Assembly: GCA_963740655.1 (NCBI GenBank)
Contig: CAVUFF010000002.1
Location: 17,790 to 81,789, forward strand
DNA length: 64,000 bases
DNA from: an uncultured Acidobacteriota bacterium
GTDB lineage: Bacteria; Acidobacteriota; Vicinamibacteria; Fen-336
Direction of reading: 5' to 3'
Shown here: piece by piece, positions 1-14,194 of the stretch
Layout of the letters: every line of letters starts with the position of its first letter
How positions within the stretch are numbered: position 1 is the stretch's first letter
The notes under the pieces: generated by a model
Told to the model about the DNA's origin: nothing
Database searches by the model: none
What the model saw: the letters and a program-made list of their open reading frames with translations, nothing else
Made by a program: the position numbers and the translations under genes

Positions 1-795
1 CGACCCAAGTAGCGCCGGAGCCCGCTCGAGTACTCACGCGGCGTCAGCCCGATGTAGCTCGCCAGGTGTCGAGCGGATGGGAAGCGCCTGATGTCTCCGA
101 TGAAGGCGAGTAGCGCTGTAGCGGTCAGCAGGCCGACTCCGGGGATGGTCATCAGCTGAGCCACTACTGGCAGCTGCTGACTCATCGCTTGCAGCTGTCG
201 CTCGACCCGTTCGACACGAGCCTCGATCTCGCGGATCTCCTGGCACAGCTCGGCTAGAAAAGGTCGCAGCGTATCGGGCACCTCGGCCTCCGCATCCTCG
301 ACGAGCGCCCACACCGCGGGGATCACCGCGCGCGCGCCGGTCGGGATGAAGAATCCCAGCTCCCGAAGCAGACCGCGCAGGCAGTTGATGCGGGCGGTGC
401 GCTCACTCATCCAGCCAGAGCGCAGCCGATGCAGCGAGGTCAGGACTTGCTGGGACACCGTCTTGACCGGCACCGGTCGAATGTCCTCGTTGCGGCTGGC
501 CTCTAGGATTCCCTTGGCGTCGGTGCGGTCCGTCTTGTTGCGTCGCACGTACGGACGCACGTGGTAGGGCGGGAGCAACACCACCCGATGCCCCAAGCCT
601 TCGATTCGACGGCCCCAGTAGTGTGCTGAGCCGCACGCTTCCATCACCACGGTGGCGGCAGGGCGCTGGGCGAAGAAGGCTCAAGAACTGAGCCCTCGGC
701 AGCCGCTCGCGCCGCCCAACCCGCCCGGGGCGATCAGACACCGCGATCTCGAAAACAGACTTTGCCAGGTCTACGGCAATGCGCGTATCGTTCTG
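1..795 (-). pseudogene. IS110-family (DEDD) transposase, 3' end off-window, frameshifted near 675-690
   Basis: Minus-strand translation MQNDTRIAVDLAKSVFEIAV...RAQFLS, then in the +1 frame FFAQRPAATVVMEACGSAHYWGRR...MTIPGVGLLTATALLAFIGDIRRFPSARHLASYIGLTPREYSSG. A TGA separates the two frames. Confidence 0.7.
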
Positions 796-879
796 CATGG
801 ATGGGCTCCTCCTTGCCAACACAGCAGCGACTCTGGCACATCGATGCCGACTGAGTCGTTGGAGGAGTCCATCTCATCA
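1..879 (-). mobile_element. IS110-family insertion sequence, partial (runs off the window start), abutting an attC fragment
   Basis: Transposase frame reaches position 1. About 85 bp of 5' leader ends exactly where attC homology (ATGAAGCAGACGAAGCC) starts at 880. Confidence 0.55.
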
Positions 880-920
880 ATGAAGCAGACGAAGCCAGAG
901 CATATTGGAGCTTCGCAGCT
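880..920 (+). repeat. attC fragment (attC-0: L'' remnant, centre and start of right arm), cut on both sides by IS elements
   Basis: ATGAAGCAGACGAAGCCAGAGCATATTGGAGCTTCGCAGCT matches the other attC copies. It continues at 4024. Confidence 0.6.
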
Positions 921-1236
921 GATATGGCACGCCCCCGTGTCAACCCTGTGAGCGGGTCTGTTCGTCGGTCGCTGTTGGTTCTCTAGGCAAGCCTCCGACA
1001 GGACGCCCAGACGGCGGACGAGGCGAAGCGGCGTCGACGACGAGTCACGCTGATATGCGCGGGTTGAGCCGGGAATCGGCTCAGAGCCGCATGACCGTGT
1101 TCCGTCGGGAGTGACCGCGCTCTTAAGACGCGAGTCACGGAGTGAGCCCCGTGTCGCAAAGCTGCGTCGCGGATTCTCCGGATCGTTGCTCGCCTCGTCC
1201 GCCGTCGGGGAGTTCTGTGCACATGAAGAAGGCTAA

Positions 1237-2711
1237 CAGCCCGTGGTGAAGGAGACAGCCCGTGGTGAAAGTCCTGAACGGACCCGCCTTGGATATTACG
1301 TAGTGTAGTTTGCGGGTATGGCGATGGGAAAGAGAAGGAAGCGACCGCAGGAGACGATGTGGGTTGCGACGAGAGACCTGCCGAAGAGCCCTGGGCATCC
1401 CTTCTATAAGCGGTTGAATCAGGTTCTGGCGGCAAACAGCTTCGACGCGTTCGTCGAGGCCGCGTGCCGGCGGTTCTACGCGGCGAAGATGGGTCGGCCG
1501 AGTCTGCCACCGGGGCGGTACTTCCGGCTGATGCTGCTGGGGTACTTCGAGGGTTTGGGTTCGGAGCGCGGGATGGCGTGGCGAGCGGCGGACTCTCTGG
1601 CGATCCGGAGCTTCCTGGGCTTGGAACTGGACGAGGCGGCGCCGGATCATTCGACGATTTCAAGGACGCGTCGGCTGATCGACGTGGGGACGCACGAGCG
1701 AGTGTTCACGTGGGTGCTGGAGCGGCTGGCCAAGCAGGGTCTGTTGGTCGGCGCGACGATCGGGATCGACGCGACGACGCTCGAGGCGAACGCGGCGATG
1801 CGAAGCATCGTGCGACGGGACACGGGAGCGAGCTACGAAGAGTTCCTGAAGGGACTGGCGAAGGCGTCGGGGATCAAGACACCGACGCGGGAAGCGCTGG
1901 CGCGGCTGGATCGGCGGCGCAAGAAGAAGGCTTCCAACGACGACTGGACGAGTCCCTCGGACCCCGACGCGAAGATCACGAAGATGAAGGACGGGCGGAC
2001 GCACTTGGCCCACAAGGCGGAGCACGCGGTTGACGTGGACACGGGTGCGATCGTGGCGGTGACGGTGCAGGGAGCGGATCAAGGCGACACGAGCACGATC
2101 GGCAAGACGCTGGAGGAGGCGCAAGAGCAGCTCGACACGGTGATGGAGAAGGTGGACGAGCTTCACGCTGACGGCCTCTGCGAGGTCGTGGCGGACAAGG
2201 GCTACCAGAGCGATCGGATCATGGTCGAGCTCGAGGAGCAGGGGCTGCGTTCGTACGTGTCGGAGCCGGACCGCGGACGTCGCAAGTGGAAGGACGACAT
2301 CCTTGCTCAGCAAGCGGTGTACGCCAATCGCCGGCGCATCCGCGGTGAGCGAGGCAAGCGGCTACACCGGATGCGAGGCGAACTGATCGAGCGCCCCTTC
2401 GCGCACCTGTACGAAACCGGGGGCATGCGACGCACCCACCTCCGGGGTCACACAAGTATTCTGAAACGCCTGCTGATTCACGCGGCCGGCTTCAACCTGG
2501 GCCTGGTGATGCGGACCTCAATCGGCGTCGGCACTCCGCGAGGACTCCAGGGAGTGCTGCAAGCCCTCCTCTGCTCGCTTGCGCGCCTCACGAGCTCGCT
2601 GGCTGCCGCCTTGGATGGCCTCATCGCCGATTCGGCTGTCGAAACCGCTCCGGCCGCACGCCTGCGAACACATCCGCAGGGCAGGCTGAAGATGGCTTTT
2701 GCCACGGGCTG
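1237..2711 (+). mobile_element. IS1182-family (IS5/IS1182 superfamily) IS nested in IS110-like copy 1
   Basis: Perfect 10-bp terminal inverted repeat CAGCCCGTGG / CCACGGGCTG and a 4-bp target duplication CTAA (1233-1236 and 2712-2715). The uninterrupted site GGCTAAGCGG is seen in copy 2 at 12315-12324. Confidence 0.85.
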
Positions 2712-2715
2712 CTAA
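1318..2715 (+). CDS. IS1182-family DDE transposase
   Basis: 465-aa ORF MAMGKRRKRPQETMWVATRDLPKSPGHPFYKRLN...PDHSTISRTRRL...VADKGYQSD...RPFAHLYETGGMRRTHLRG. The stop lies in the duplicated CTAA. Confidence 0.85.
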   Translation: MAMGKRRKRPQETMWVATRDLPKSPGHPFYKRLNQVLAANSFDAFVEAACRRFYAAKMGRPSLPPGRYFRLMLLGYFEGLGSERGMAWRAADSLAIRSFLGLELDEAAPDHSTISRTRRLIDVGTHERVFTWVLERLAKQGLLVGATIGIDATTLEANAAMRSIVRRDTGASYEEFLKGLAKASGIKTPTREALARLDRRRKKKASNDDWTSPSDPDAKITKMKDGRTHLAHKAEHAVDVDTGAIVAVTVQGADQGDTSTIGKTLEEAQEQLDTVMEKVDELHADGLCEVVADKGYQSDRIMVELEEQGLRSYVSEPDRGRRKWKDDILAQQAVYANRRRIRGERGKRLHRMRGELIERPFAHLYETGGMRRTHLRGHTSILKRLLIHAAGFNLGLVMRTSIGVGTPRGLQGVLQALLCSLARLTSSLAAALDGLIADSAVETAPAARLRTHPQGRLKMAFATGC

Positions 2716-3830
2716 GCGGAACGCAGGGCAGCGAGCGGCGACAGCGCTGCCCAGATGAAGCCCGTGAGCTCTCGGGCCATTGCGACGACGGCCTTCTGGG
2801 GTGACACACCACGCAGGGTCATGGAGTAGTAGCGTCGGTGCAGGCGCAGCATGGCGCGGTCTGCCAAGGCGATCAGCTTTGGCGACTGGCCCTCGCGGCG
2901 ACGACGCAGGGCGCTTCCGACGTGGGGACGATGTCTGTAGTTCCAGGCAGCCTCGATCAACAGGCGCCGGACGTGGCTGTTTCCGGTCTTGGTGATGGAG
3001 CCCTGACGACGAGTGTCGCCCGAGCTGTGCTCGCTCGGCACGAGCCCGACGAAGCCCATAAGGCGGCGCGGCGAAGTGAAGCGTTCGAAGTTGTGCAACT
3101 CGACCGCGAGACCGACGGCGGTCACGGTATCGATGCTGCGGAAACAGCGCAACGCCGCGACGACGGCTGCGTAGCGAGGGTCCTGTGCCAGGCGCTCGAG
3201 GTGAGCGAGCAACGCCAACAGACGTTGTTCGCAGTGATCGATGGCGAGAAGGTAGTCCGAGACGACGACCTTCTCGAAGAGATCGTCGAAGCGAAGGGAC
3301 TCGAGCCAGAGCCGGTGGGTGCTGGTCCACGCGCGCTTGCCCGGAGTGAAGGTGATGCCGCGTCGCAGCAGGTACTTGCTGAGGCGATGGCGAGCACGCA
3401 TCCGGTCCTCACGCAGGTCCTCGCGAGCGCGAGACAGATCGCGCGCCGCCTCGTCCGCCTGGCTGAGCGGCTGGACCTCGGTGAGAAGTCCGGCGCGCAG
3501 CAGCATGGCGAGCTTGCGTGCGTCACGGCGATCGGTCTTGACGCGAGCGCCAGGCTTGGCCGGGATCAGCGACGGAGCGACCAGCATGCAGCTGGCCTCG
3601 CTCCAGGACGTGATCTGGCGCTGCAGCGCATAGCCGCACGGCCCGGCTTCGTAGCAGTAGCGCACCTCGCCCCCCGCCGCCTCCCGCGAGATCCGCTGCA
3701 GCATCCCGCGAATCGGCTTCGGCTCGTTCGCAACCCGCCACTCCAAAGGCCTCTCCTGACCCGGCAGCAGCACAGCTACCTGGATCCACGCTTTGTGCAC
3801 GTCGAGCCCCACGAAGGTGATACCCTGCAT
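2712..3830 (-). CDS. IS110-family transposase (IS110/IS1111-like element, copy 1)
   Basis: 372 aa from MQGITFVGLDVHKAWIQVAVLL...RVKTDRRDARKLA...RSIDTVTAVGLAVELHNFERFTSPRRLMGFVGLVPSEHSSGD..ITKTGNSHVRRLL. Identical to 12317-13435. Confidence 0.85.
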   Translation of the reverse strand: MQGITFVGLDVHKAWIQVAVLLPGQERPLEWRVANEPKPIRGMLQRISREAAGGEVRYCYEAGPCGYALQRQITSWSEASCMLVAPSLIPAKPGARVKTDRRDARKLAMLLRAGLLTEVQPLSQADEAARDLSRAREDLREDRMRARHRLSKYLLRRGITFTPGKRAWTSTHRLWLESLRFDDLFEKVVVSDYLLAIDHCEQRLLALLAHLERLAQDPRYAAVVAALRCFRSIDTVTAVGLAVELHNFERFTSPRRLMGFVGLVPSEHSSGDTRRQGSITKTGNSHVRRLLIEAAWNYRHRPHVGSALRRRREGQSPKLIALADRAMLRLHRRYYSMTLRGVSPQKAVVAMARELTGFIWAALSPLAALRSA

Positions 3831-4023
3831 TGCCGGCTCCTTTCGTATGCGGCTCTGGCGTCTCGCACGCCAATCCGCGCTTTGTGGCGGCCGTTCGCCG
3901 CCTGTGTCGCCAGTTGCTCTAGCGACTTTACGATTCGGAGCCGGCACTTCGCTCTTCCCTAGTTCCCTCGCTCGGCGTACTCTCTGCATGCCACGCCCTC
4001 CTCCAGGGGCGTGCCATATGGTC

Positions 4024-4041
4024 TTATCCTCGGTGTTAGGC
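4024..4041 (+). repeat. attC-0 right arm and R' core (GTTAGGC 4035-4041)
   Basis: TTATCCTCGGTGTTAGGC directly after the IS end. Canonical GTTRRRY. Confidence 0.7.
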
Positions 4042-4095
4042 CGACCATCAGGCAGCGGTCGTGCGGCCGCGCAAACACAACGTACGGAGGGCAAG

Positions 4096-4827
4096 ATGGC
4101 AGCCACGCTAGAGGAGCGATCCCCCGAGGAGACCAAGCGGGTCGCGCGGCTCGCGGGCGCCGTGTATGTGTCGCTCGGGCTCGCGACGGCCTTTGGCTTC
4201 TATCACGCGCCCTTGGTCCAGAGCGACCTCAGCGCCATCGCCCACGGGCTGACAAAGTCCGACCTCCGCTTCCGCATCGGGGTGGTGACCGACGTGCTCT
4301 CCGCGGCGCTGTCGGTACCCTTGGCCCTGCTGCTCTATCAGTTGCTCAAGCCGGTCCACAAGATGCAGGCGGTGCTGATGGCCCTGCTGCTGTTGGTCGC
4401 GATGCCCATCTCATTCGTCGTCGCGCTCAACTACGTCGCGGCGCAATGGCTCCTTAGCGGGGCCCCCGTGGTCGCGGCCCTCGCCAGCGCGGAGCGGGAG
4501 GCGCTTGGGATGCTCTTCCTCCGCCTGCACACGCACGGCGTGCTGGCGGTAGAGATCTTCTGGGGGCTGTGGCTGCTGCCGTTCGGCCTGCTCGTCATGA
4601 AGTCGCGTTTTCTTCCTCGCGTGCTGGGCATCCTACTCGTCATCGCGGGCGTGGCCTATGTGGCGCATAGCGTCGTCTCGCTGCTGCTGGATGGGCCACG
4701 CATCATCCTGTACGAGCGGGTGACGATGTTGGCGCGCGCCGCCGGCGAGTTCCCGATCATGCTTTGGCTCCTGATCAAGGGAGCGGACGTGCGAGGCGAG
4801 CGTGAGAGCGGCCTAACAAGGGGATGA
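4096..4827 (+). CDS. Polytopic membrane protein (DUF4386-like), cassette ORF
   Basis: ATG at 4096 after the attC. 243 aa with several hydrophobic helices. The stop TGA 4825-4827 lies inside GGGGATGAAGC of the next attC. Family call is from memory. Confidence 0.6.
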   Translation: MAATLEERSPEETKRVARLAGAVYVSLGLATAFGFYHAPLVQSDLSAIAHGLTKSDLRFRIGVVTDVLSAALSVPLALLLYQLLKPVHKMQAVLMALLLLVAMPISFVVALNYVAAQWLLSGAPVVAALASAEREALGMLFLRLHTHGVLAVEIFWGLWLLPFGLLVMKSRFLPRVLGILLVIAGVAYVAHSVVSLLLDGPRIILYERVTMLARAAGEFPIMLWLLIKGADVRGERESGLTRG

Positions 4828-4839
4828 AGCAGATGGAAG
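4811..4839 (+). repeat. attC-1 left part (R'' GCCTAAC, class A L'')
   Basis: GCCTAACAAGGGGATGAAGCAGATGGAAG, interrupted at 4840 by an IS3 element. Confidence 0.75.
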
Positions 4840-4851
4840 TGACCCGCTTTC

Positions 4852-5181
4852 GTGGACACCCGAGAAGAGGCGTATATGGGTGTTATGGAGCGATGGAAGC
4901 GACGGTCGTACACGAGGGAGTTCAAGGCCGAGACGGTCCGGCTGGTGGTCGAGGGAGGACGGTCGATCCCGGACGTCGCGCGGGACCTTGAGCTAACCGA
5001 GTCGGCGCTTCGTCTGTGGGTGCATCAGGCGGAGGTCGATGCGGGAAGAGGCAAGCCAGGCGAGCTCACCACTGCAGAACGCCAAGAACTGGCGCAGCTG
5101 CGCCGCGAGGTGAAGACGCTGCGGCTCGAGCGGGAGATCCTGAAAAAAGCGGCGGCCTTCTTCGCGAAGGAGAACGGGTGA
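4852..5181 (+). CDS. IS3 OrfA (HTH transposase subunit); start uncertain (4852, 4876 or 4885)
   Basis: MERWKRRSYTREFKAETVRLVVEGGRSIPDVARDLELTESALRLWV...LRREVKTLRLEREILKKAAAFFAKENG. Confidence 0.8.
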   Translation: MDTREEAYMGVMERWKRRSYTREFKAETVRLVVEGGRSIPDVARDLELTESALRLWVHQAEVDAGRGKPGELTTAERQELAQLRREVKTLRLEREILKKAAAFFAKENG

Positions 5182-6053
5182 AGTTTGCTTTCATCCACGC
5201 GGAGGGGGCCAAGCTGCCCACGAGTCTCCTGTGCCGTGCCTTGAGGGTGTCGCGGAGCGGCTTCTACGCTTGGAGCAAGCGCCCACCGTCGAGACGAGCC
5301 GTCGAGGATTCCAAGCTGGTCCCGGTGATCCGTGCCTGTCACGCCCAGAGTCGGGCGACCTACGGCAGCCCACGTGTGCACAAGGATCTTCAGGCGCTGA
5401 GCTACCGCGTGTCGCGCAAGCGCGTCGCCCGCCTGATGCGTCGCGAGGGCCTTTCGGCGCGGCCGCCGCGACGCTATCGAGCCACGACCGAGTCGAAGCA
5501 CTCCCTGCCGATCGCCCCCAACGTCGTCGCCCGCGAGTTCCACGCCCCGGCGCCAAACCGGGTGTGGGTAACGGACATGACTTACATCTGGACTTGGGAA
5601 GGCTGGTTGTTCCTGGCTGCGATCGTGGATGTCTTCTCGCGTCGCGTGGTCGGCTGGGCAATGGCCGACCACCTGCGCACGGAGCTTCCGCTCGAAGCGC
5701 TCGGGATGGCGCTCGGCATTCGTCAGCCGGAGCGCGGTCTCGTCCACCACTCGGATCGTGGCTGTCAATACGCGAGCGAGATCTATCGGGCCGAGCTCGA
5801 CGCGCGTGGCATCGTCTGCAGCATGAGCCGCGTCGGCGACTGCTGGGACAACGCGGTCGCCGAGAGCTTCTTCGCCACCCTGAAGACGGAGCTCATTCAC
5901 CGACGTCCTTGGCCGACGAAGGCTGAGGCACGCTCGGCCGTCCACGACTACATCGGAGCGTTCTTCAATCCGCACCGGCGTCACTCGTCCCTCGGTTACG
6001 TCAGCCCGATGGACTTCGAACGACAACACGCTGCCGCGACCGTGGCAGCATAG
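5016..6053 (+). CDS. IS3 OrfB frame (DDE integrase-like catalytic domain; expressed as OrfAB)
   Basis: ..PNRVWVTDMTYIWTWEGWLFLAAIVDVFSRRVVGWAM...HHSDRGCQYAS...GDCWDNAVAESFFATLKTE. Confidence 0.85.
   Translation: MGASGGGRCGKRQARRAHHCRTPRTGAAAPRGEDAAARAGDPEKSGGLLREGERVKFAFIHAEGAKLPTSLLCRALRVSRSGFYAWSKRPPSRRAVEDSKLVPVIRACHAQSRATYGSPRVHKDLQALSYRVSRKRVARLMRREGLSARPPRRYRATTESKHSLPIAPNVVAREFHAPAPNRVWVTDMTYIWTWEGWLFLAAIVDVFSRRVVGWAMADHLRTELPLEALGMALGIRQPERGLVHHSDRGCQYASEIYRAELDARGIVCSMSRVGDCWDNAVAESFFATLKTELIHRRPWPTKAEARSAVHDYIGAFFNPHRRHSSLGYVSPMDFERQHAAATVAA
5143..5149 (+). other. Candidate programmed -1 frameshift site (AAAAAAG) joining OrfA to OrfB
   Basis: A6G heptamer in the orfA/orfB overlap, as is typical for IS3-family elements. 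Confidence 0.6.
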
Positions 6054-6078
6054 CGGGGCTGTCCACGGAAACGGGTCA

Positions 6079-6135
6079 ACTCCAAGACGAAACCTGAGCA
6101 TAATGGAGCTTCGCAGCTTATCCCCGGTGTTGGGC
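6079..6135 (+). repeat. attC-1 right part (class A L', R' GTTGGGC 6129-6135)
   Basis: ..AGACGAAACCTGAGCATAATGGAGCTTCGCAGCTTATCCCCGGTGTTGGGC. Confidence 0.75.
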
Positions 6136-6189
6136 AGGCTCTTTTCCTAGCATACTTCGTCGCATACTTCGTAGATCGCTGAGGACAGG

Positions 6190-6603
6190 ATGCCAGAGAC
6201 CTTTGTGGCAGCTCAACCGCGCTGGAGCATCGCACCCTACTTCATAGTCGATGACGTCGTCGCAACGGCCAACTATTACCGCGACAAACTCGGCTTTGCC
6301 TAGGAACGCTTCTGGAACGATCCTCCATCCTTCTGCATGGTTCAACGTCGTGGCGTCGTCATCATGCTGGCCCAACTCGAGCAGCCCGGTGTCATGCGGC
6401 CTAACCGTCTCGTCGATCCGGAGGGCGGAGCCTGGGACACCTATATCTGGGTCGACGATGCGGACGCGCTGAATGCCTCGTTCAAGTTGAAGGGCGTCAA
6501 GATCACGCGAGACATTTGTGATCAACCCTACGGGTGCCGCGACTTCGACGTTGAGGACTGCAACGGCTATCGTCTCTGTGTTGGGCACGACACGGAACGC
6601 TGA
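6190..6603 (+). pseudogene. VOC (glyoxalase/bleomycin-resistance) family cassette gene with an in-frame amber stop
   Basis: MPETFVAAQPRWSIAPYFIVDDVVATANYYRDKLGFA-TAG(6301-6303)-ERFWNDPPSFCMVQRRGVVIMLAQ...GCRDFDVEDCNGYRLCVGHD. One continuous frame of ~137 codons. Confidence 0.65.
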
Positions 6604-6640
6604 AGCCGCTCTCTGCTTACGCTCGGTTCATGGTAGCGCT

Positions 6641-6712
6641 GCCCAACAATGCGTTGCAGCTGACGAAGCCGGCGCAAGCGATGGAGCTTCGCAGCTGAAC
6701 GCAGTGTTCTGC
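6641..6712 (+). repeat. attC-2 (class C arms: AATGCGTT(G)CAGC / GCTGAACGCAGT; R'' GCCCAAC, R' GTTCTGC)
   Basis: Same architecture and central GACGAAGCCGGCGCAAGCGATGGAGCTTCGCAGC as the other copies, but both outer arms are changed in a complementary way. Confidence 0.75.
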
Positions 6713-6753
6713 GGACATGCTGGGTGGAGGAAGCGCTCGCTGAGCCAACCTGC

Positions 6754-7140
6754 ATGAGAACTCGAGTTGCCCACATGGTCGGGGTAGCTGCCTTGGGAAT
6801 CCTGCTCCTGTCGTGTAGTGACGACTGCCGCGGTATCGAGAGCGCGAGTTGTGCCCCGCAGTTGGTGATCAGAGCCACAATTTCGAGTGCCGCTGACGGC
6901 GGGCCGGTACAGAACGTGTTGCTGCAGGTATCGAGTGGTGCCCCGACCATGTGCTCGATTGAAACCAAGGTCACCGTGTGCGATGTGTGGGGCTTTTCAG
7001 GTACCTTTACGCTCGTCGTGGCTGCTCCGGGCTTCCAGAGTACCGAGCGCGACATCACCGTCAAGGGCGAGAACCGCCCATGCAGCTGCCCGATAGCGGT
7101 CAGAGAGAACGTGGCGGTGTCACTGTCACCCATCCCTTGA
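6754..7140 (+). CDS. Hypothetical lipoprotein, cassette ORF
   Basis: MRTRVAHMVGVAALGILLLSC: signal peptide with lipobox. Cys-rich beta-type sequence. No family recognised. Confidence 0.55.
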   Translation: MRTRVAHMVGVAALGILLLSCSDDCRGIESASCAPQLVIRATISSAADGGPVQNVLLQVSSGAPTMCSIETKVTVCDVWGFSGTFTLVVAAPGFQSTERDITVKGENRPCSCPIAVRENVAVSLSPIP

Positions 7141-7190
7141 GGACCAGGTCGAGCTAGTGCAGGTCAGCTCGTCCGTACGAAGACCGAGCC

Positions 7191-7263
7191 GCAGAACAAG
7201 GGGATGAAGCAGACGAAGCCGGCGCAAGCGATGGAGCTTCGCAGCTTATCCCCGGTGTTCGAC
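7191..7263 (+). repeat. attC-3 (class A; R' GTTCGAC)
   Basis: GCAGAACAAGGGGATGAAGCAGACGAAGCCGGCGCAAGCGATGGAGCTTCGCAGCTTATCCCCGGTGTTCGAC. Confidence 0.8.
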
Positions 7264-7301
7264 CGACCGAGAGGACCCCACCGGGCAGGCCGTGCTGCTA
7301 G

Positions 7302-7585
<284 letters not shown>

Positions 7586-7614
<29 letters not shown>

Positions 7615-7852
7615 GGCCTCGGACGATCTCAGGTCCGAGTACTCGTTCGACTATTCCAAGGCGAAGGCAAATCCCTATGCAGCGCAGCTCAAGGGCCGCA
7701 CCGTCGCAGTCGTCCTGGAGCCCGATGTAGCGGCTGCTTTCCCGAACTCGAAGGCCGTCAACACGCAGCTGCGGGCCGTCGTCGCCGCGGTACCGAGACG
7801 CTCGCGAAGACGCGTCGCTCCCCGAAGGCGAGGCGGTCGAACAAGGGGATGA
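7586..7852 (+). CDS. brnA: BrnA-like antitoxin
   Basis: ..DLRSEYSFDYSKAKANPYAAQLKGRTVAVVLEPDVAAAFPNSKAVNTQLRAV. Overlaps the brnT 3' end. The stop lies inside the attC GGGGATGAAGC. Confidence 0.7.
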
Positions 7853-7906
7853 AGCAGACGAGCGTTGAGCGTATTGGACGCTCGCAGCTTATCCCCGGTG
7901 TTGGGC
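7836..7906 (+). repeat. attC-4 (class A outer arms; inner stem variant AGCG/CGCT; R' GTTGGGC)
   Basis: GTCGAACAAGGGGATGAAGCAGACGAGCGTTGAGCGTATTGGACGCTCGCAGCTTATCCCCGGTGTTGGGC. Confidence 0.8.
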
Positions 7907-7923
7907 CGACTTGAGGTGAGGTC

Positions 7924-8394
7924 GTGAAGAAGGCGAAGGCAGATCCGGCAGTCGACAGCAGGCCTCCGAGCGCGCGAGAAGTCTCTACTCTACTTGGCAG
8001 GTCGCACGCCGCGTTCGTCGCCCTCACGCAGCGCGGATCCGGAGTGACGTGCGAATGGAAGCGCTACACTAAGACGTCGCCATGGACCCTGAAGGTCAGC
8101 GAAGGCGATCGGACGCTCCTTTACGCTACTCCCAAGGCCGACGCCTTCGAGGCAACGGTTATTCTGGGCGAGCGCGCGACGGAGGCCGCACTGGGCGGGC
8201 GTGTCTCGAAAAGGCTCCACGCATCTATACGGGCCGCCAAGTCGTATGTAGAGGGGCGTGTCGTGCGTGTCACGGTTAGGGGCCAGGCCGACGTTGCTGC
8301 TGTCGAGGAGCTCGTAGCTGTCAAGCTCAAGCCAACTGGCGGCACAAGTGACGCATCCTCGGGGAAGCGACGGCGCGGCCCAACAAGGGGATGA
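7924..8394 (+). CDS. DUF3788-like protein, cassette ORF (GTG start)
   Basis: 156-aa ORF; ..CEWKRYTKTSPWTLKVSEGDRTLLYATPKADAFEATVILGERA...YVEGRVVRVTV. Family call is from memory. Confidence 0.5.
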   Translation: MKKAKADPAVDSRPPSAREVSTLLGRSHAAFVALTQRGSGVTCEWKRYTKTSPWTLKVSEGDRTLLYATPKADAFEATVILGERATEAALGGRVSKRLHASIRAAKSYVEGRVVRVTVRGQADVAAVEELVAVKLKPTGGTSDASSGKRRRGPTRG

Positions 8395-8450
8395 AGCAGA
8401 CGAAGCCGGCGCAAGCGATGGAGCTTCGCAGCTTATCCCCAGTGTTGGGC
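8378..8450 (+). repeat. attC-5 (class A; R'' GCCCAAC, R' GTTGGGC)
   Basis: GCCCAACAAGGGGATGAAGCAGACGAAGCCGGCGCAAGCGATGGAGCTTCGCAGCTTATCCCCAGTGTTGGGC. Confidence 0.85.
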
Positions 8451-8513
8451 GGACCTCTAGACGAGCGATCGCATGCCGGCCGTCGGGCAGGTGTATTGGT
8501 CGAGGTTAGGCTA

Positions 8514-8987
8514 GTGCGGGTTGTTCGGCGAGTAGGCTACTGGGTGAACGATCGAGAAGAGGACCGCGAACGTTCGCAGGTCGACAGAAGCATCAAGGCA
8601 CCATCCCCTCAAGTCGACTTTCCTCATCCGGCAGCCATCATCGCTGCCCTGGGCGCCCGCCCTCCCGACGTGCGCGTCGTGCAGTACCTTCGCAATGGGA
8701 TTCACGCGGACCTGTGGATGGGCTGTTCCTACTGCCGCCTTCGGTGCGGCGTGCCCGATTCGGAGATGGGCAGCTTCGATCTAACGGACGGACTCTGGCT
8801 GTGGCCTGAGGGGCTTGTTCACTATGTGGAAGTTCACGGGCTTCCGTTGCCCGAGGAGTTTATTGCGACGATGAAGACGAACGCTTGGCAGCCGCCCGTC
8901 GAGCTATCCGACACGGGAGATGGCAAGCTGGACTCGCAGTTCTGGCTCGAGTGGGGTGTTCGGCACTCCAAGGGCAGACTACTGTAG
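8514..8987 (+). CDS. Hypothetical protein, cassette ORF (start GTG 8514 or TTG 8496)
   Basis: ..VVQYLRNGIHADLWMGCSYCRLRCGVPDSEMGSFDLTDGLWLWPEGLVHYVEVHGLPLPEEFI.. No named family recognised. Confidence 0.55.
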   Translation: MRVVRRVGYWVNDREEDRERSQVDRSIKAPSPQVDFPHPAAIIAALGARPPDVRVVQYLRNGIHADLWMGCSYCRLRCGVPDSEMGSFDLTDGLWLWPEGLVHYVEVHGLPLPEEFIATMKTNAWQPPVELSDTGDGKLDSQFWLEWGVRHSKGRLL

Positions 8988-8999
8988 GAGCACGAGGCC

Positions 9000-9070
9000 G
9001 CCCAACAAGGAGTTGAAGCTGACGAAGCATGAGCATATTGGAGCTTCGCAGCTTATCCCCGGTGTTAGGC
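9000..9070 (+). repeat. attC-6, chimeric (class B left arm GGAGTTGAAGC, class A right arm GCTTATCCCC; R' GTTAGGC)
   Basis: GCCCAACAAGGAGTTGAAGCTGACGAAGCATGAGCATATTGGAGCTTCGCAGCTTATCCCCGGTGTTAGGC. Confidence 0.8.
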
Positions 9071-9379
9071 GACTTTCCGCGACTTCGACGAGGCGAACGC
9101 GAGCCGCACGCTGACGCCCAGCCTGGCAAGCATGTCGATCAAGGCATCGGTGCTGAACAGGTCGAGCCTCCCGCGCAGCAGGTCACTGACGCGCGGCTGA
9201 GACACGCGCATGATTCTGGCTGCTTCGGACTGCGTGAGGCCACGGGCCTTCAGTAGCTTCTCGATCTTGATCATGAGTTCCGAGCGAATCGCCAGGTGCT
9301 CTGCCTCTTCGCGTCCGAATCCCAGATCCCTGAAGACGTTCCCGCTCGAGCGCGTGACCTTGCTCTTAGCTCTTTCCAT
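9065..9379 (-). CDS. higA: HigA-like XRE-family HTH antitoxin (cassette inverted relative to the array)
   Basis: MERAKSKVTRSSGNVFRDLGF..EAEHLAIRSELMIKIEKLLKARGLTQSEAARIMRVSQPRVSDLLRGRLDLFSTDALIDMLARLG. The stop TAA is the TTA of the GTTAGGC core. Confidence 0.8.
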   Translation of the reverse strand: MERAKSKVTRSSGNVFRDLGFGREEAEHLAIRSELMIKIEKLLKARGLTQSEAARIMRVSQPRVSDLLRGRLDLFSTDALIDMLARLGVSVRLAFASSKSRKVA

Positions 9380-9713
9380 GGCCTTCCCTCCGCCGATGCT
9401 CCAGCAACTCCCGATAGCGTTTTCGCGCCAGCTCGATGTCGGAAGGAGGGGTCTTCCTGGTGCGTTTCTCGAAGGCGTGCAGTATGTAGATGCCCTCAAG
9501 GAATCGCGCGACGTAGCAGACCCTATGTTCCGTCTCGGTGTGGATTCGTATCTCCTGGACACCCGCCCCTATGCCGGCCATCGGCTTCCAGTCGTTGGGC
9601 TCCAGCCCTTGCTGGACACGAAAGAGTTGGAAGCCGGCTACTCGCCTCGCCGGCCGGGGGAAGCCTCTGATGTCGCGTCGCGACGACCCCAGCCACAGGA
9701 GGCGCTTGGCCAT
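9366..9713 (-). CDS. higB: HigB/Gp49-like (RelE/ParE superfamily) toxin
   Basis: MAKRLLWLGSSRRDIRGFP..AGFQLFRVQQGLEPNDWKPMAGIGAGVQEIRIHTETEHRVCYVARFLEGIYILHAFEKRTRKTP. Lies upstream of the antitoxin and overlaps it. Confidence 0.8.
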   Translation of the reverse strand: MAKRLLWLGSSRRDIRGFPRPARRVAGFQLFRVQQGLEPNDWKPMAGIGAGVQEIRIHTETEHRVCYVARFLEGIYILHAFEKRTRKTPPSDIELARKRYRELLEHRRREGHGKS

Positions 9714-9770
9714 TCGCCCTACTATACAAGTACCAGTATACGATCGTCAAGGCGTAGGATGGACCGCGTC

Positions 9771-9842
9771 GCCTAACAAGGAGTTGAAGCTGACGAAGCC
9801 CGGCAAACTTCGGAGCTTCGCAGCTTAACTCCAGTGTTAGCC
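9771..9842 (+). repeat. attC-7 (class B; R'' GCCTAAC, R' GTTAGCC)
   Basis: GCCTAACAAGGAGTTGAAGCTGACGAAGCCCGGCAAACTTCGGAGCTTCGCAGCTTAACTCCAGTGTTAGCC. Confidence 0.85.
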
Positions 9843-9869
9843 CGACCTGATGCAGGAGACGAGACGGCA

Positions 9870-10454
9870 GTGACCAAAGGGAGGCCTACTGCGGGACGAG
9901 CCGCGACAGCGATCCTTGGCTTTCTCTCAGAGATCCCGACAACGTTAGAGCGGCTCAACTCGTCGCCCAAAGATCGCGCCCGACAAATCGCTAGCGCGGC
10001 CGCGCGCAAGGCCTGCACGATCTCCGGTGCGCTCGCTCTACCTCCAGGTCCCGCAGGCCTCGTGACGATACTGCCGGATCTTGTCGCCGTCTGGCGGGTG
10101 CAGGCGCAGATGGTCGCCGACATCGCGGGCGCCTTTGGCAAGTCAGCCGTTCTGTCTCGCGAGCAAATGCTCTACTGCTTGTTCAAGCACACCGCGGCGC
10201 AGGCCGTGCGCGACTTAGTGGTACGGGTGGGCGAGAGGTATCTCGTTCGGCGCGGGGGCTTGCGCGTCGTCGAAGCCGTAGCTGCCAGGGTGGGTGTTAA
10301 GGTCACCCAGCGCGCGATTGCGACGAGCGTCAGCCGATGGCTTCCTGTCGTCGGGATCGTGGGAGTGGCTGGCTATGCCTACTACGACACAGCTCAAGTT
10401 GGAGCTACAGCGATTTCGTTTTTCGAGAAGCCAGTCTTTTCGGACGGAGCCTGA
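9870..10454 (+). CDS. EcsC-family-like protein, cassette ORF (start uncertain; the ORF is open from 9834, inside the attC)
   Basis: ..RARQIASAAARKACTISGALALPPGPAGLVTILPDLVAVWRVQAQMVADIAGAFGKS..; C-terminal hydrophobic segment. Family call is from memory. Confidence 0.5.
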   Translation: MTKGRPTAGRAATAILGFLSEIPTTLERLNSSPKDRARQIASAAARKACTISGALALPPGPAGLVTILPDLVAVWRVQAQMVADIAGAFGKSAVLSREQMLYCLFKHTAAQAVRDLVVRVGERYLVRRGGLRVVEAVAARVGVKVTQRAIATSVSRWLPVVGIVGVAGYAYYDTAQVGATAISFFEKPVFSDGA

Positions 10455-10499
10455 GCATGATTGCTGTAGCGTCGCCTTGGTCCTCAGGCGGACGGGGCG

Positions 10500-10552
10500 G
10501 GCTAACAAGGAGTTGAAGCTGACGAAGCCAAGCGTATTGGAGCTTCGCAGCT
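10500..10552 (+). repeat. attC-8 left part (class B), interrupted by the IS110/IS1111-like element
   Basis: GGCTAACAAGGAGTTGAAGCTGACGAAGCCAAGCGTATTGGAGCTTCGCAGCT, then the IS end GATATGGCAC. Confidence 0.8.
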
Positions 10553-10614
10553 GATATGGCACGCCCCCGTGTCAACCCTGTGAGCGGGTCTGTTCGTCGG
10601 TCGCTGTTGGTTCT

Positions 10615-12000
10615 CTAGCAGCCCGTGGTAGAACGCCGCTGTTGCGGCGTGTTGATCGCGAAGGAGGGCGGGGAGTTCCGCATCGCGACGTGAGTCGGTG
10701 GAAGGTCGCGTGTGAGCAGCAAGGGTCTCAGGGCGCGATAGAGGCTCAGTAGCAGCGGCAAGAGACGGACGGAACGGCCCTGGAGGCTCCGTGGCGTTCC
10801 GATCCCGAGCATCTCTCGCAGCAGCCGACCCAGATTGAACGCACCCGCGTGGACCAGCAGTCGCTTGAGGATGTTCGAGTGGCCGCGTAGATGCGTCCGG
10901 CGCATTCGACCGGTCTCGTACAGGTGAGCGAACGACCGCTCGACACGCTCGCCCCGCTGGCGCTGTAGACGCCGAGCGCGACCGCTGCGTGCCCGACGGC
11001 GGTTCGCGTAGACCGCCCGCTGGGCCATGACTTGTCCGCGCCAGCGGCGCCGTCCACGCTCGGGCTCCGAGATGTAGGCGCGCAGACCGACCTCGTCGAG
11101 GCCGACCAGCACGTCGTCGCTGTGGTAGCCCTTGTCCGCGACGACCTCCTGCATGTCCTGCGCGAGCGCCTCGCGGCGCAGCTTGAGCAACTGTCCCTCG
11201 GCCTCCGCCAGCGTCTGCATGATCGTCGCGGTGTCGCCGATGCTCGCGTTCTGCACGGTGACCGCCACGATCGCACCCGACTCGTCGTCCACAGCGTGCT
11301 CGGCTTTGTGCGCGAGATGCGTCCGCCCGTCCTTCATCTTCGTGATCTTCGCGTCCGGGTCCGAAGGGCTCTTCCACTCCTCGTTCGAACCCTTCTTCGC
11401 ACGCCGCCGATCCAGCCGTGCCAAAACGGCTCGCGTCGGGGTACGAACTCCTGACGCCTTCGCCAGACCCGTCAGGTACTCCTCGTACTTCTCCCCGCTG
11501 TCACGCCGCACGATGCTCCGCATCGCCGCGTTTGCCTCCAGCGTCGTCCCGTCCACGAGAATCGTCGCGCCCTTCACCAGACCGGCCTCGCCGAGACGCT
11601 CGAGCACCCAAGAGAACACCTCGCGGTGCGTTTCAACGTCGATCAATCGTCGCGTCCGCGAAATCGTCGAGTGGTCCGGACCACGCTCCTCGACTCCCAG
11701 GCTCAGGAAGCTGCGGACCGCCAGCGAGTCGGCAGCGCGCCATGCGATCCCACGCTCCGAGTCGAGCCCTTCGAAGTACCCCAGCAACAGCAGCCGGAAG
11801 TAGCGCCCAGGCAACAGGCTCGGGCGCCCGACTTGCCCCGCGTAGAAGCGCGCGCAGATCCTCTCCGCGAAGCTGTCGAATCCAGATCGCTCCAGCACCG
11901 CATTCAGGCGCTGATAGAACGGGTGTCCGGGGCTCTTCGGCAGCTCGCTCGCCGCGACCCACATCGTCCCTTGCCGCTTCTTCCTCTTGCCCATCGCCAT
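10615..12000 (-). CDS. IS1182-family DDE transposase (paralogue of 1318-2715)
   Basis: MAMGKRKKRQGTMWVAASELPKSPGHPFYQRLN...VADKGYHSD...RSFAHLYETGRMRRTHLRG. The stop lies in the duplicated CTAG. Confidence 0.85.
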   Translation of the reverse strand: MAMGKRKKRQGTMWVAASELPKSPGHPFYQRLNAVLERSGFDSFAERICARFYAGQVGRPSLLPGRYFRLLLLGYFEGLDSERGIAWRAADSLAVRSFLSLGVEERGPDHSTISRTRRLIDVETHREVFSWVLERLGEAGLVKGATILVDGTTLEANAAMRSIVRRDSGEKYEEYLTGLAKASGVRTPTRAVLARLDRRRAKKGSNEEWKSPSDPDAKITKMKDGRTHLAHKAEHAVDDESGAIVAVTVQNASIGDTATIMQTLAEAEGQLLKLRREALAQDMQEVVADKGYHSDDVLVGLDEVGLRAYISEPERGRRRWRGQVMAQRAVYANRRRARSGRARRLQRQRGERVERSFAHLYETGRMRRTHLRGHSNILKRLLVHAGAFNLGRLLREMLGIGTPRSLQGRSVRLLPLLLSLYRALRPLLLTRDLPPTHVAMRNSPPSFAINTPQQRRSTTGC

Positions 12001-12066
12001 ATGCCCACAATCTAGGCACACGGCTTCAGCCTCGCTACTAGTGGCCGTGACTTTCACCACGGGCTG
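10619..12066 (-). mobile_element. Second, diverged IS1182-family IS nested in IS110-like copy 2
   Basis: Terminal inverted repeat CAGCCCGTGG / CCACGGGCTG and target duplication CTAG (10615-10618 and 12067-12070). The empty site TTCTCTAGGCAAGCC is seen in copy 1 at 981-995. Confidence 0.85.
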
Positions 12067-12316
12067 CTAGGCAAGCCTCCGACAGGACGCCCAGACGGCG
12101 GACGAGGCGAAGCGGCGTCGACGACGAGTCACGCTGATATGCGCGGGTTGAGCCGGGAATCGGCTCAGAGCCGCATGACCGTGTTCCGTCGGGAGTGACC
12201 GCGCTCTTAAGACGCGAGTCACGGAGTGAGCCCCGTGTCGCAAAGCTGCGTCGCGGATTCTCCGGATCGTTGCTCGCCTCGTCCGCCGTCGGGGAGTTCT
12301 GTGCACATGAAGAAGG

Positions 12317-13435
12317 CTAAGCGGAACGCAGGGCAGCGAGCGGCGACAGCGCTGCCCAGATGAAGCCCGTGAGCTCTCGGGCCATTGCGACGACGGCCTT
12401 CTGGGGTGACACACCACGCAGGGTCATGGAGTAGTAGCGTCGGTGCAGGCGCAGCATGGCGCGGTCTGCCAAGGCGATCAGCTTTGGCGACTGGCCCTCG
12501 CGGCGACGACGCAGGGCGCTTCCGACGTGGGGACGATGTCTGTAGTTCCAGGCAGCCTCGATCAACAGGCGCCGGACGTGGCTGTTTCCGGTCTTGGTGA
12601 TGGAGCCCTGACGACGAGTGTCGCCCGAGCTGTGCTCGCTCGGCACGAGCCCGACGAAGCCCATAAGGCGGCGCGGCGAAGTGAAGCGTTCGAAGTTGTG
12701 CAACTCGACCGCGAGACCGACGGCGGTCACGGTATCGATGCTGCGGAAACAGCGCAACGCCGCGACGACGGCTGCGTAGCGAGGGTCCTGTGCCAGGCGC
12801 TCGAGGTGAGCGAGCAACGCCAACAGACGTTGTTCGCAGTGATCGATGGCGAGAAGGTAGTCCGAGACGACGACCTTCTCGAAGAGATCGTCGAAGCGAA
12901 GGGACTCGAGCCAGAGCCGGTGGGTGCTGGTCCACGCGCGCTTGCCCGGAGTGAAGGTGATGCCGCGTCGCAGCAGGTACTTGCTGAGGCGATGGCGAGC
13001 ACGCATCCGGTCCTCACGCAGGTCCTCGCGAGCGCGAGACAGATCGCGCGCCGCCTCGTCCGCCTGGCTGAGCGGCTGGACCTCGGTGAGAAGTCCGGCG
13101 CGCAGCAGCATGGCGAGCTTGCGTGCGTCACGGCGATCGGTCTTGACGCGAGCGCCAGGCTTGGCCGGGATCAGCGACGGAGCGACCAGCATGCAGCTGG
13201 CCTCGCTCCAGGACGTGATCTGGCGCTGCAGCGCATAGCCGCACGGCCCGGCTTCGTAGCAGTAGCGCACCTCGCCCCCCGCCGCCTCCCGCGAGATCCG
13301 CTGCAGCATCCCGCGAATCGGCTTCGGCTCGTTCGCAACCCGCCACTCCAAAGGCCTCTCCTGACCCGGCAGCAGCACAGCTACCTGGATCCACGCTTTG
13401 TGCACGTCGAGCCCCACGAAGGTGATACCCTGCAT
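12317..13435 (-). CDS. IS110-family transposase (copy 2)
   Basis: Translation identical to 2712-3830. Confidence 0.85.
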   Translation of the reverse strand: MQGITFVGLDVHKAWIQVAVLLPGQERPLEWRVANEPKPIRGMLQRISREAAGGEVRYCYEAGPCGYALQRQITSWSEASCMLVAPSLIPAKPGARVKTDRRDARKLAMLLRAGLLTEVQPLSQADEAARDLSRAREDLREDRMRARHRLSKYLLRRGITFTPGKRAWTSTHRLWLESLRFDDLFEKVVVSDYLLAIDHCEQRLLALLAHLERLAQDPRYAAVVAALRCFRSIDTVTAVGLAVELHNFERFTSPRRLMGFVGLVPSEHSSGDTRRQGSITKTGNSHVRRLLIEAAWNYRHRPHVGSALRRRREGQSPKLIALADRAMLRLHRRYYSMTLRGVSPQKAVVAMARELTGFIWAALSPLAALRSA

Positions 13436-13628
13436 TGCCGGCTCCTTTCGTATGCGGCTCTGGCGTCTCGCACGCCAATCCGCGCTTTGTGGCGGCCGTT
13501 CGCCGCCTGTGTCGCCAGTTGCTCTAGCGACTTTACGATTCGGAGCCGGCACTTCGCTCTTCCCTAGTTCCCTCGCTCGGCGTACTCTCTGCATGCCACG
13601 CCCTCCTCCAGGGGCGTGCCATATGGTC

Positions 13629-13646
13629 TTAACTCCAGTGTTGGAC
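13629..13646 (+). repeat. attC-8 right arm (class B; R' GTTGGAC)
   Basis: TTAACTCCAGTGTTGGAC directly after the IS end. Confidence 0.75.
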
Positions 13647-13671
13647 AGACCTCGTAGATGGGGCGCTTGGG

Positions 13672-14004
13672 TTGAGAATCACGATCTTCCAGATCAAGCT
13701 GGTCCACACCATCATCTTCTGGATCCTGAGCCTGTGTACCGTCTACGCGCTCTTCAGCGGCATTGCCGACCGAATCAACGTCTGGACTTGGGTCGCCGTG
13801 GCTTTGCTCCTTTTCGAGAGCATCGTCCTCGTAGTGTCCGGCTGGACATGCCCGCTGACGCTCCTCGCCGAGCGTCAGGGGGCGCTACAGGGTTCCGTGA
13901 CGGACATCTTCCTCCCGAAATGGTTTGCCGACCGAATCTTCCCGATATGCGGCACCATGTACGCGGTCGCACTCGTCCTCATTCTCTGGCGCGTATTCCG
14001 GTAG
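13672..14004 (+). CDS. Small 3-4 TM membrane protein with GW-x-CPLT motif (TTG start), cassette ORF
   Basis: 110-aa ORF; ..VVSGWTCPLTLLAERQGALQGSVTDIFLPKWFADRIFPI.. Shares the CPLT motif with 15280-15687. Confidence 0.5.
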   Translation: MRITIFQIKLVHTIIFWILSLCTVYALFSGIADRINVWTWVAVALLLFESIVLVVSGWTCPLTLLAERQGALQGSVTDIFLPKWFADRIFPICGTMYAVALVLILWRVFR

Positions 14005-14084
14005 CATGGCCGGCATGGTTCCGCCGAACGAACAACGGGGCCGACTCAACGGTGCGGCCGAGCGTGTCGTTCAAAGACGGGGCT

Positions 14085-14157
14085 GCCCAACAAGGAGTTG
14101 AAGTGACGAAGGCTGCGCTTCGCGCTGGGTCTTCGCAGCTTAACCCCAGTGTGAGGC
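14085..14157 (+). repeat. attC-9 (class B-like; degenerate R' GTGAGGC)
   Basis: GCCCAACAAGGAGTTGAAGTGACGAAGGCTGCGCTTCGCGCTGGGTCTTCGCAGCTTAACCCCAGTGTGAGGC. Confidence 0.7.
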
Positions 14158-14194
14158 GGACCCCGCAGGGCGCGACGCAGACGTACGGTCGCTC

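Follow-up and report, generated by a model that had tools for sequence, protein, structure and literature searches.

Several of the insertion sequences (ISs) that enter the attC sites of integrons make up the IS1111-attC group, comprising ISPst6, ISPa21, ISKpn4 and ISPa25 (Tetu & Holmes 2008 and Post & Hall 2009, as represented in PMC3001079 and PMC11187229). Members of this monophyletic subgroup enter attC close to its 5′ end and lie antisense to the cassettes (PMC3001079), and a seekRNA has been demonstrated for ISKpn4 and ISPst6 (Siddiquee et al. 2024, PMC11187229). The IS1111 label is also applied more widely. ISSso6, ISEc45 and ISCARN28 were labelled as IS1111 group by Durrant et al. (2024, Supplementary Table 5, PMC11208160), who list their bridge RNA as right-end. 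According to Siddiquee et al. (2024, PMC11187229), ISSso6 and ISEc45 are 15–25% identical to the tight IS1111 family, as distant from it as the IS110-type ISEc21, and the transposases of the narrow family are typically 330–350 aa long. Here we describe IS-X, the name given here to a 1624-bp element that occurs twice in a 64,000-nt stretch of DNA (the window, C2:17790-81789) from a 4.99-Mb, 71% G+C, 86%-complete metagenome-assembled genome (MAG) of an uncultured Acidobacteriota bacterium. Positions given without a contig name are those of the window. IS-X is very probably an active or recently active RNA-guided IS of the IS110 superfamily, whose natural target is the L′ arm of attC sites in a soil Acidobacteriota host lineage.

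To define the element, positions 1–16000 of the window were compared with themselves. Three blocks were 100% common to both stretches, and the junctions were then read. Copy A (921–1236 and 2716–4023) and copy B (10553–10618 and 12071–13628) comprise the same 1624 bp, with 100% identity in both BLAST and direct string comparison. This bears out the first-pass annotation, made from the sequence of the window, which had recognized a single 1624-bp element in 921–4023 and 10553–13628 once the ISs nested in each are removed. With its right CT core (4023–4024), copy A occupies 921–4024 on the minus strand and consists of 1625 bp of IS-X, the nested IS and the 4-bp duplication of the latter. Copy B, with its right CT core (13628–13629), occupies 10553–13629, also on the minus strand. 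The 372-aa transposase, whose identical translation in both copies had been noted at the outset, is intact and identical in the two: its gene is at 2712–3830 in copy A and at 12317–13435 in copy B, on the minus strand in each, and it possesses DEDD_Tnp_IS110 and Transposase_20 domains. In copy A, the transposase and the guide RNA described below are both encoded on the minus strand. The non-coding ends of IS-X are 193 nt (5′) and 312 nt (3′). The subterminal inverted repeat reported previously was also found: ATATGGCACGCCCC lies at 922–935, in the right, RNA-side end, and its partner, GGGGCGTGCCATAT, at 4007–4020, in the short 5′ non-coding end of copy A (3831–4022, minus strand; 193 nt when counted to 4023). 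The repeat is 14 bp long and lies 1 nt and 3 nt from the element ends.

A search of the genome for further copies, with tabulation of their flanks, had been proposed in the first-pass annotation. It yielded two more identical and uninterrupted copies, at C2:4830-6453 and C11:336325-337948, and one relative, ISX2, at ~C11:326620-328117 (62% amino-acid identity). All of these are in attC sites, at the same position and in the same orientation. The genome therefore contains four identical copies of IS-X in four different attC sites, which fits the recent activity originally suggested. ISX2 was considered as a pseudogene; this was rejected, as its single TAG is the stop codon and its open reading frame (ORF) is intact.

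The insertion site of IS-X is constant to the nucleotide. Copy A is preceded by the left part of an attC, at 880–920 on the plus strand (ATGAAGCAGAC...GGAGCTTCGCAG-CT, in which CT at 919–920 is the left core), and followed by the right part, at 4025–4041 on the plus strand (TATCCTCGGTG|TTAGGC, the remainder of L′ and the R′ core). The left core of copy B is at 10551–10552. Both window copies split attC between ...GGAGCTTCGCAGCT and TA(T/A)C..., the site of copy A being of the TTATCC type and that of copy B of the TTAACTCC type. All five elements of the genome, the four IS-X copies and ISX2, lie between ...GGAGCTTCGCAG-CT and TA(T/A)C.....GTGTT, with the transposase gene antisense to the cassettes as first noted for the window copies. 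The insertion point, GCAG-CT|TA(T/A)C, belongs to the L′ arm and precedes the G|TT crossover by 11 nt, which corrects the distance of about 12 nt given originally. The CT dinucleotide flanks both ends of every IS-X copy and an intact attC reads GCAGCTTATCC. Because the CT core is present on both sides (919–920 and 4023–4024 in copy A), insertion adds 1625 bp. The earlier statement that there is no obvious target duplication thus holds for a long duplication and is supplemented by this 2-bp core. Site-specific insertion without a long target duplication, and with a short common core at both junctions, is the pattern of the IS110 superfamily. Overall, we counted 14 insertions in the own genome, related genomes and metagenome contigs, and all were at the identical attC nucleotide, which extends the claim of one nucleotide and one orientation beyond the two window copies. 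The nine insertions outside the own genome came from two genomes of the same genus, one of the same family, one other MAG and four metagenome contigs. In the C11 copy, the attC halves on either side (C11:337949-338004 and C11:336270-336324) pair poorly, L″ being AAAGAGAT and L′ TTATCCCC. At the point of insertion, the site has a chimeric look, which might stem from recombination between IS copies or from excision followed by reinsertion.

The target repeats are attC sites by structure and by context. They have RYYYAAC ... GTTRRRY cores and paired L″/L′ arms. The genome contains two integrons with about 55 attC sites: 57 sites were identified using an nhmmer profile, nearly all of them in three array stretches that make up the two. 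The array of the first runs from C11:894766 to the contig end and probably continues as C2:1-36544; that of the second spans C11:325756-340091. Three integron-integrase genes, scoring above the TIGR02249 cut-off, directly adjoin the arrays. Two are in tandem at C11:892262-894204, directly upstream of the large array and in the same direction, and the third, at C11:341389-342339, is divergent from the second array on C11. These genes stand alongside the argument made initially, that the presence of the element independently supports reading the repeats as attC. The word CGCAGCTTA occurs 50 times in the 5-Mb genome, and 43 of these occurrences are inside the arrays, about 1% of the genome; the placement of IS-X in attC is therefore not due to chance. 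None of the seven words outside the arrays is occupied.

The 312-nt 3′ region of IS-X folds into a long closing stem with two substructures. It contains a predicted bridge RNA/seekRNA of 198 nt, represented by covariance model R1, at 1009–1206 in copy A and at 12093–12290 (G000:C2:29882-30079) in copy B, on the minus strand in each; in copy B nothing interrupts the RNA or separates it from the transposase gene. In the first substructure, an internal loop, the 5′ side, CGCAGCUUU, is identical to the attC top strand, CGCAG-CT-T, and the 3′ side, GUCUUAAGA, contains UUAAG, the bottom strand of CT-TAA. In the RNA of copy A, the predicted target guides are thus CGCAGCUU (5′ guide, 1159–1166, minus strand) and UUAAG (3′ guide, 1122–1126, minus strand). 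The second substructure contains the candidate donor guides, ACGGUC (1093–1098) and CAUAUCAG (1050–1057), both on the minus strand; CAUAUCAG is identical to the right end of IS-X plus the core. The 3′ region has one feature of bridge RNA/seekRNA systems, a conserved structured RNA with an internal loop whose two sides correspond to opposite target strands on either side of the core.

The RNA represents a conserved family. Six close relatives align in it with compensatory changes. Among 84 distinct sequences, 89.6% of cells were paired, versus 72.7% in shuffled alignments and at most 44% with slid partners. Changes on both sides were present in 58 of 64 pairs, and the observed scores were reached in none of 500 shuffles. 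Fitting of the alignment to the model favours the structure; the margin is nevertheless large. R1 detected exactly five copies in the own genome and gave no credible match in the loci of ISKpn4, ISPa21, ISPa25, IS5075, IS5708, IS884, ISShdy1 or IS-Y, a second attC-targeting element of the same array that is described below. An Rfam 15 scan of positions 1–16000 at E ≤ 1 matched no family; the IS-X RNA is therefore absent from Rfam.

We then compared the loops with the flanks of their own elements across the family. Loop sides were taken from the model alignment, right ends were located using the TTGAC...CATATC motif and left ends using the subterminal repeat. The reverse complement of the 5′ loop matched the element's own right flank, core included, with a mean identical run of 6.1 nt (n = 70), versus a mean of 2.6 and a maximum of 3.0 in 200 shuffles of the loci. 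The 3′ loop matched its own left flank with a mean run of 4.7 nt (n = 57), versus 3.0 when shuffled. Among the relatives, the loops follow widely differing targets, such as AGCGATC, AGCCTTG, GGAATGAC and AACGGGGG. Small changes are followed too. Loci L021, L022, L023, L051 and L054, together with ISX2, have an AUAAG guide and occupy ...GGGGATA-AG sites. IS-X has a UUAAG guide, with two copies in ...GAGTTA-AG sites and two in TTAT-type sites. In locus L135, the guide is CGCCGCU and the attC arm reads AG-CGGCGAAGC (AGCGGCG). In the donor region, ISX2 has UAUAUGAG and the end CCATATG-AG, versus CAUAUCAG and CCATATC-AG in IS-X. The geometry is alike in both regions of the RNA: the 5′ side would pair with the top strand right of the core and the 3′ side with the bottom strand left of it. 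When the loop is read in the orientation of the element, its 5′ side is the complement of the top strand (A-AG-CTGCG), to which its 3′ side is identical. A match to the top strand first is the order of IS1111-type seekRNAs (Siddiquee et al., PMC11187229). Judged by these sequence matches, the loops are the predicted guides of the element.

By homology with ISEc11, ISKpn4 and IS621 (PMC11187229, PMC11208160), the following mechanism may be modelled. IS-X would be excised as a circle that joins ...CCATATC-AG-ACCATATGG..., and the 198-nt 3′ RNA, once transcribed, would be bound by the transposase. One internal loop would pair with both strands of a double-stranded target, CGCAGCUU on its 5′ side and UUAAG on its 3′ side, around the CT/AG core, and the second RNA region (ACGGUC ... 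CAUAUCAG) would pair with the joined element ends. Strand exchange catalysed at the 2-bp CT/AG core would then place IS-X between GCAG-CT and TA(T/A)C and in every case antisense to the cassettes. The inserted element separates L′–R′ from R″–L″, so the attC should lose the ability to fold into a substrate of the integrase, and the cassettes on its two sides would be welded together until IS-X leaves.

IS621 and ISCro4 (PDB 8WT6, 9T56) offer a structural parallel, in that the sides of their target loops pair with opposite strands around a 2-bp core, as is proposed for IS-X; the core is CT in IS621 and CT/AG in IS-X. By contrast, their proteins are very distant from that of IS-X (phmmer E = 1e-9 to 1e-3, C-terminal domain only), the RNA of IS621 is in the 5′ end and that of IS-X in the 3′ end, and IS-X has long subterminal repeats and a donor-binding part that is no simple loop. 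In a search of PDB sequences, IS-X and IS-Y alike matched only ISCro4 and IS621, weakly and in the C-terminal part, which does not discriminate between the two elements. Group IIC-attC introns are likewise mobile elements that home to attC in one orientation (PMC3001079), but they are retroelements with a ribozyme and a reverse transcriptase, insert near the 5′ end of attC and use different chemistry.

The IS-X transposase belongs to the IS110 superfamily. It contains PF01548 (DEDD_Tnp_IS110) and PF02371 (Transposase_20), and scores 229 bits against NF033542, the NCBIfam model for the IS110 family RNA-guided transposase (cut-off, 140). Residues D10, E61, D100, D103 and S270 are invariant in 24 relatives, and the GL-P----S(T)G motif of the narrow IS1111 family is present as GLVPSEHSSG. 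The closest named transposases are those of ISSso6 (42% identity) and ISEc45 (41%); the identity to ISKpn4, ISPa21, ISPa25, ISShdy1, IS5075, IS5708 and IS-Y is 24–29%, over partial alignments. In a maximum-likelihood tree of 27 transposases (IQ-TREE; named anchors taken from plasmid loci, and the founders of the IS110 group, IS110, IS621 and ISEc21, not among the taxa), ISKpn4, ISPa21, ISPa25, IS-Y, IS5075, IS884, IS5708 and ISShdy1 formed one clade (99/99). IS-X, ISX2 and two relatives (75–77% identity) formed another (100/98), nested in a 14-member clade that includes ISSso6 and ISEc45 (100/100), and other IS110-family sequences lay between the IS1111 clade and that of IS-X.

The name to be given to IS-X depends on the authority used. 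The element has the features of the broad IS1111 group, namely subterminal repeats in the range of 7–17 bp, a right non-coding end longer than the left and a guide RNA in the right end, and is IS1111-type in ISfinder's broad sense. At 372 aa, its transposase exceeds the 330–350 aa of the narrow IS1111 family and is in a separate clade, which places it outside that family. Thus, the transposase clusters outside the IS1111 clade in the narrow sense, but not outside ISfinder's broad label. IS-X belongs to the branch of ISSso6, ISEc45 and ISCARN28, its likeness to the last having been judged by eye only. ISSso6 resembles IS-X in its 3′ RNA, in which the region ...AUGCGG...CCGCGAAUAUCAGCGUG is conserved, and in its element ends, which are of the ...ATATC-AG type. 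ISSso6, ISEc45 and ISCARN28 differ in their targets, which have not been reported to be in attC, and the IS-X-type attC targeters form subclades of their own.

Under neither classification is IS-X a member of the IS1111-attC group. The first-pass annotation had taken IS-X to behave as a member of that group in a distant high-GC lineage; IS1111-type architecture and the targeting of attC were borne out, and membership of the group was not. The likeness is considerable: both have a DEDD transposase of the IS110 superfamily, subterminal repeats and a guide RNA encoded on the 3′ side of that gene, and both use one fixed position in an integron attC, antisense to the cassettes, with no long target duplication. 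However, IS-X does not fall within the ISPst6/ISPa21/ISKpn4 subset, shows only 26–28% transposase identity to the group and differs from it in clade, terminal repeats and RNA family. The insertion point of the group is at the 5′ end of attC, in the L″ arm and 6 nt past the R″ AAC; that of IS-X is at the 3′ end, in the L′ arm and 11 nt ahead of G|TT.

A direct comparison is provided by IS-Y, a true member of the classical IS1111-attC group that coexists with IS-X in the same array. Copy 1 of IS-Y is at C2:14440-15835 and copy 2 at C2:17278-18674, the right-hand part of copy 2 occupying positions 1–879 of the window on the minus strand. Weak IS110-family matches at C2:14891-15499 and C2:17729-18334 are parts of these copies. 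The IS-Y transposase is 48–52% identical to those of ISPa25, ISPa21 and ISKpn4, and the subterminal repeat is TGGACTCCTCC, unlike ATATGGCACGCCCC of IS-X. IS-Y inserts at AACAAGGGG|...|ATGAAGCAG, 6 nt after the R″ AAC. In class 1 integrons, ISKpn4 (qacL attC) and ISPa25 (blaOXA-17 attC) occupy the same position, also antisense. The attC cut by IS-X copy A in its L′ arm is cut by IS-Y copy 2 in its L″ arm, so one site holds both elements in opposite arms of the hairpin, ~3 nt out of register. A 1-nt indel shortens the ORF of IS-Y copy 2 and may be an assembly error. In a genome of the same family but another genus (L135, G024:C100:32223-34133), one attC was also struck by an IS-X-type element and an IS-Y-type end (TGATGAGATGGACTCCTCC).

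IS-Y bears on whether IS-X could be a divergent member of the classical group of ISPst6, ISPa21, ISKpn4 and ISPa25. The shared attC target, antisense orientation, subterminal repeats, 3′ non-coding region and GLxPxxxxSG motif would suit that proposal, as would the IS1111 label of the nearest named relatives in Table S5 of Durrant et al. However, where IS-Y is 48–52% identical to ISKpn4, ISPa21 and ISPa25, IS-X reaches 24–29% with all the named IS1111 elements tested; it is in a separate clade with 99–100% support, inserts in the opposite arm of attC and has ATATGGCACGCCCC rather than TGGACTCCTCC at its ends, and its RNA model has no match in the ISKpn4, ISPa25 and IS-Y loci. We therefore consider this proposal already largely refuted and very improbable. 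A different account disputes the transposition: the identical copies may have arisen by segmental duplication or homologous recombination of blocks of cassettes plus IS, not by repeated transposition. The arrays are repeat-rich, the copies within one array are direct repeats and the mismatched attC halves of the C11 copy, L″ AAAGAGAT and L′ TTATCCCC, are what recombination between IS copies would give. Such an origin is nonetheless hard to reconcile with four copies in four different pairs of flanks and neighbouring cassettes, where identity ends exactly at the CT cores and no pair of copies shares flanking identity past the element ends. The copies are divided between two integrons and two contigs; outside the own genome, in other genomes and in metagenomes, relatives are found at that same nucleotide in attC sites that are unrelated, and guides match flanks throughout the family. 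We give duplication very little credence.

A further proposal concerns the means of recognition. The protein might recognize attC as a folded single-stranded hairpin, like integron integrases and group IIC-attC introns, the RNA matches being incidental. In line with this, attC is structured, the two IS lineages cut within its stem nearly opposite each other, and the 3′ guide has a one-base mismatch to some of the occupied sites. Yet the loops track the flanks in ~70 relatives with unrelated targets that are not hairpins, guide and target show compensatory changes within the attC targeters, and experiments on ISKpn4, ISEc11 and IS621 demonstrate RNA-guided choice of target (PMC11187229, PMC11208160). 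Recognition of the hairpin by the protein is accordingly most unlikely.

RNA-guided targeting of the L′ arm by an active or recently active IS-X remains the preferred explanation, and several observations weigh against it. At two of the four IS-X sites, those of the TTATCC type, the UUAAG guide is mismatched at its distal base. The left end of relatives agrees with ACGGUC, with one mismatch in the left end of IS-X itself, and RNAalifold pairs ACGGUCAU into an invariant helix, which makes the donor part less clear than the target loop. The tree contains few named anchors from the IS110 group; for this reason, the deep placement of the ISSso6-like clade with respect to IS1111 proper depends on limited sampling and on published identity tables. 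Both window copies are interrupted by nested ISs and may be immobile alone; the two uninterrupted copies could supply protein and RNA in trans. The assembled contigs of four public runs showed neither a circle junction nor a convincing empty site. The 100% identity of the copies could also partly reflect assembly or polishing, because the MAG is 86% complete and shows signs of indel errors. In this assembly, gyrB (G000:C9:101207-103557; L131) is in several reading frames with an internal TGA, typical of indel errors, and rpoB was not found; the assembly probably contains such errors, so single-base frameshifts need care.

The IS-X lineage extends well beyond the own genome. Public data contain >120 protein clusters at 61–99% identity, mostly on IS-sized contigs. 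The RNA family has about 85 relatives, in which the structure covaries and the loops track their own flanks. The attC-type guide, CGCAGCU, was found in the own genome, the congeneric genomes G012 and G008 and four metagenome contigs, as well as on a 1.9-kb contig whose binning as Actinomycetota we do not trust. The lineage targeting the L′ arm thus occurs in a same-genus Acidobacteriota MAG and in soil metagenome contigs. Its attC-targeting sub-lineages are 58–100% identical to IS-X. In a 61-taxon tree, the attC targeters formed two subclades, one with a sister of other target, and two label changes were needed; the tree may reflect two such changes within the lineage or a single origin. Public runs containing IS-X were from soil, bog and sediment metagenomes, and none of those listed was an RNA run. 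One bog run, from a different study, held a variant with 15 differences over ~1.5 kb (~99% identical). When the assembled contigs of the four runs were compared with positions 700–4300, the only joint was 1231->2711, which corresponds to IS-X without its nested IS and arises because other intact IS-X copies are present. There were also loose ends at 920 and 4026, which come from other attC sites or other copies.

Because IS-X is of another lineage than the classical group and uses the opposite arm of attC, targeting of attC was probably reached independently at least twice, the second time through a guide RNA. On balance, we lean towards the view that IS-X represents an undescribed guild of RNA-guided ISs, characterized by independent attC targeting, homing to the L′ arm and guides that co-evolve with the attC classes of the chromosomal integrons of soil Acidobacteriota, possibly acting as a cassette lock. 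The co-evolution would be reflected in UUAAG versus AUAAG guides for TTAA versus TTAT sites and in CGCCGCU for GCGGCG arms. A literature search, with the two founding papers and ISfinder outside its scope, returned no description of an attC L′-arm-targeting lineage. If this view is correct, IS-X and the ISs of the L″ arm in the same arrays could provide a reversible cassette lock and portable homology for reshuffling of the arrays. Two deeply separated lineages of RNA-guided ISs would then have chosen attC as a safe harbour on opposite arms of one hairpin, a natural case of convergent retargeting through the guide RNA, with the same attC struck by both lineages in two genomes. The comparative set, with ~85 orthologues whose RNA can be decoded and ~70 matched guide–target pairs that include single-base changes following attC classes, could help to work out the guide code of this branch of bridge recombinases, which has been little studied. 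For integron biology, IS-X draws attention to IS insertions that would weld cassettes in large chromosomal arrays outside Proteobacteria. It also cautions that not every IS110-type element in an attC is an IS1111-attC element.

In the ISSso6 loci (L038/L041; Shigella sonnei pINV, NZ_CP109776.1:56664-59261), the element is ~270 bp downstream of the ISEc20 transposase gene, and its 3′ region contains the same donor-type RNA motif (CGAAUAUCAGCGUG) as IS-X. The word TTGAC(A) precedes the ...CCATATC right end by 8–16 nt in nearly all of loci L021–L130 (for example, at 943–948 of the window, minus strand). It may be the −35 of a promoter that is completed on the circle junction; in the relatives, in which a junction promoter was sought, no convincing −10 was found with a spacing of 17 bp over the junction of the ends.

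The 3′ non-coding regions of the two window copies were each struck by a different IS1182/IS5-like element. The transposases of these nested elements (461–465 aa) match the IS1182 and IS5 models below the equivalog cut-offs. The element in copy A, at 1237–2711 on the plus strand, is 1475 bp long, encodes a 465-aa DDE transposase at 1318–2715 and has terminal repeats CAGCCCGTGG and a target duplication, CTAA, at 1233–1236 and 2712–2715. It is placed exactly at the stop codon of the IS-X transposase gene, which the duplicated CTAA preserves; the gene of copy A is therefore parted from the 3′ non-coding region and the guide RNA. Relatives 91–96% identical to it occur at other sites of this genome. 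The element in copy B, at 10619–12066 on the minus strand, is 1448 bp long and 75% identical to the element in copy A, encodes a 461-aa DDE transposase and is unique in the genome. Its target duplication, CTAG, is at 10615–10618 and 12067–12070, and its insertion cuts off the last 66 bp of copy B from the remainder. The CTAG word in the 3′ non-coding region is conserved among the relatives of IS-X.

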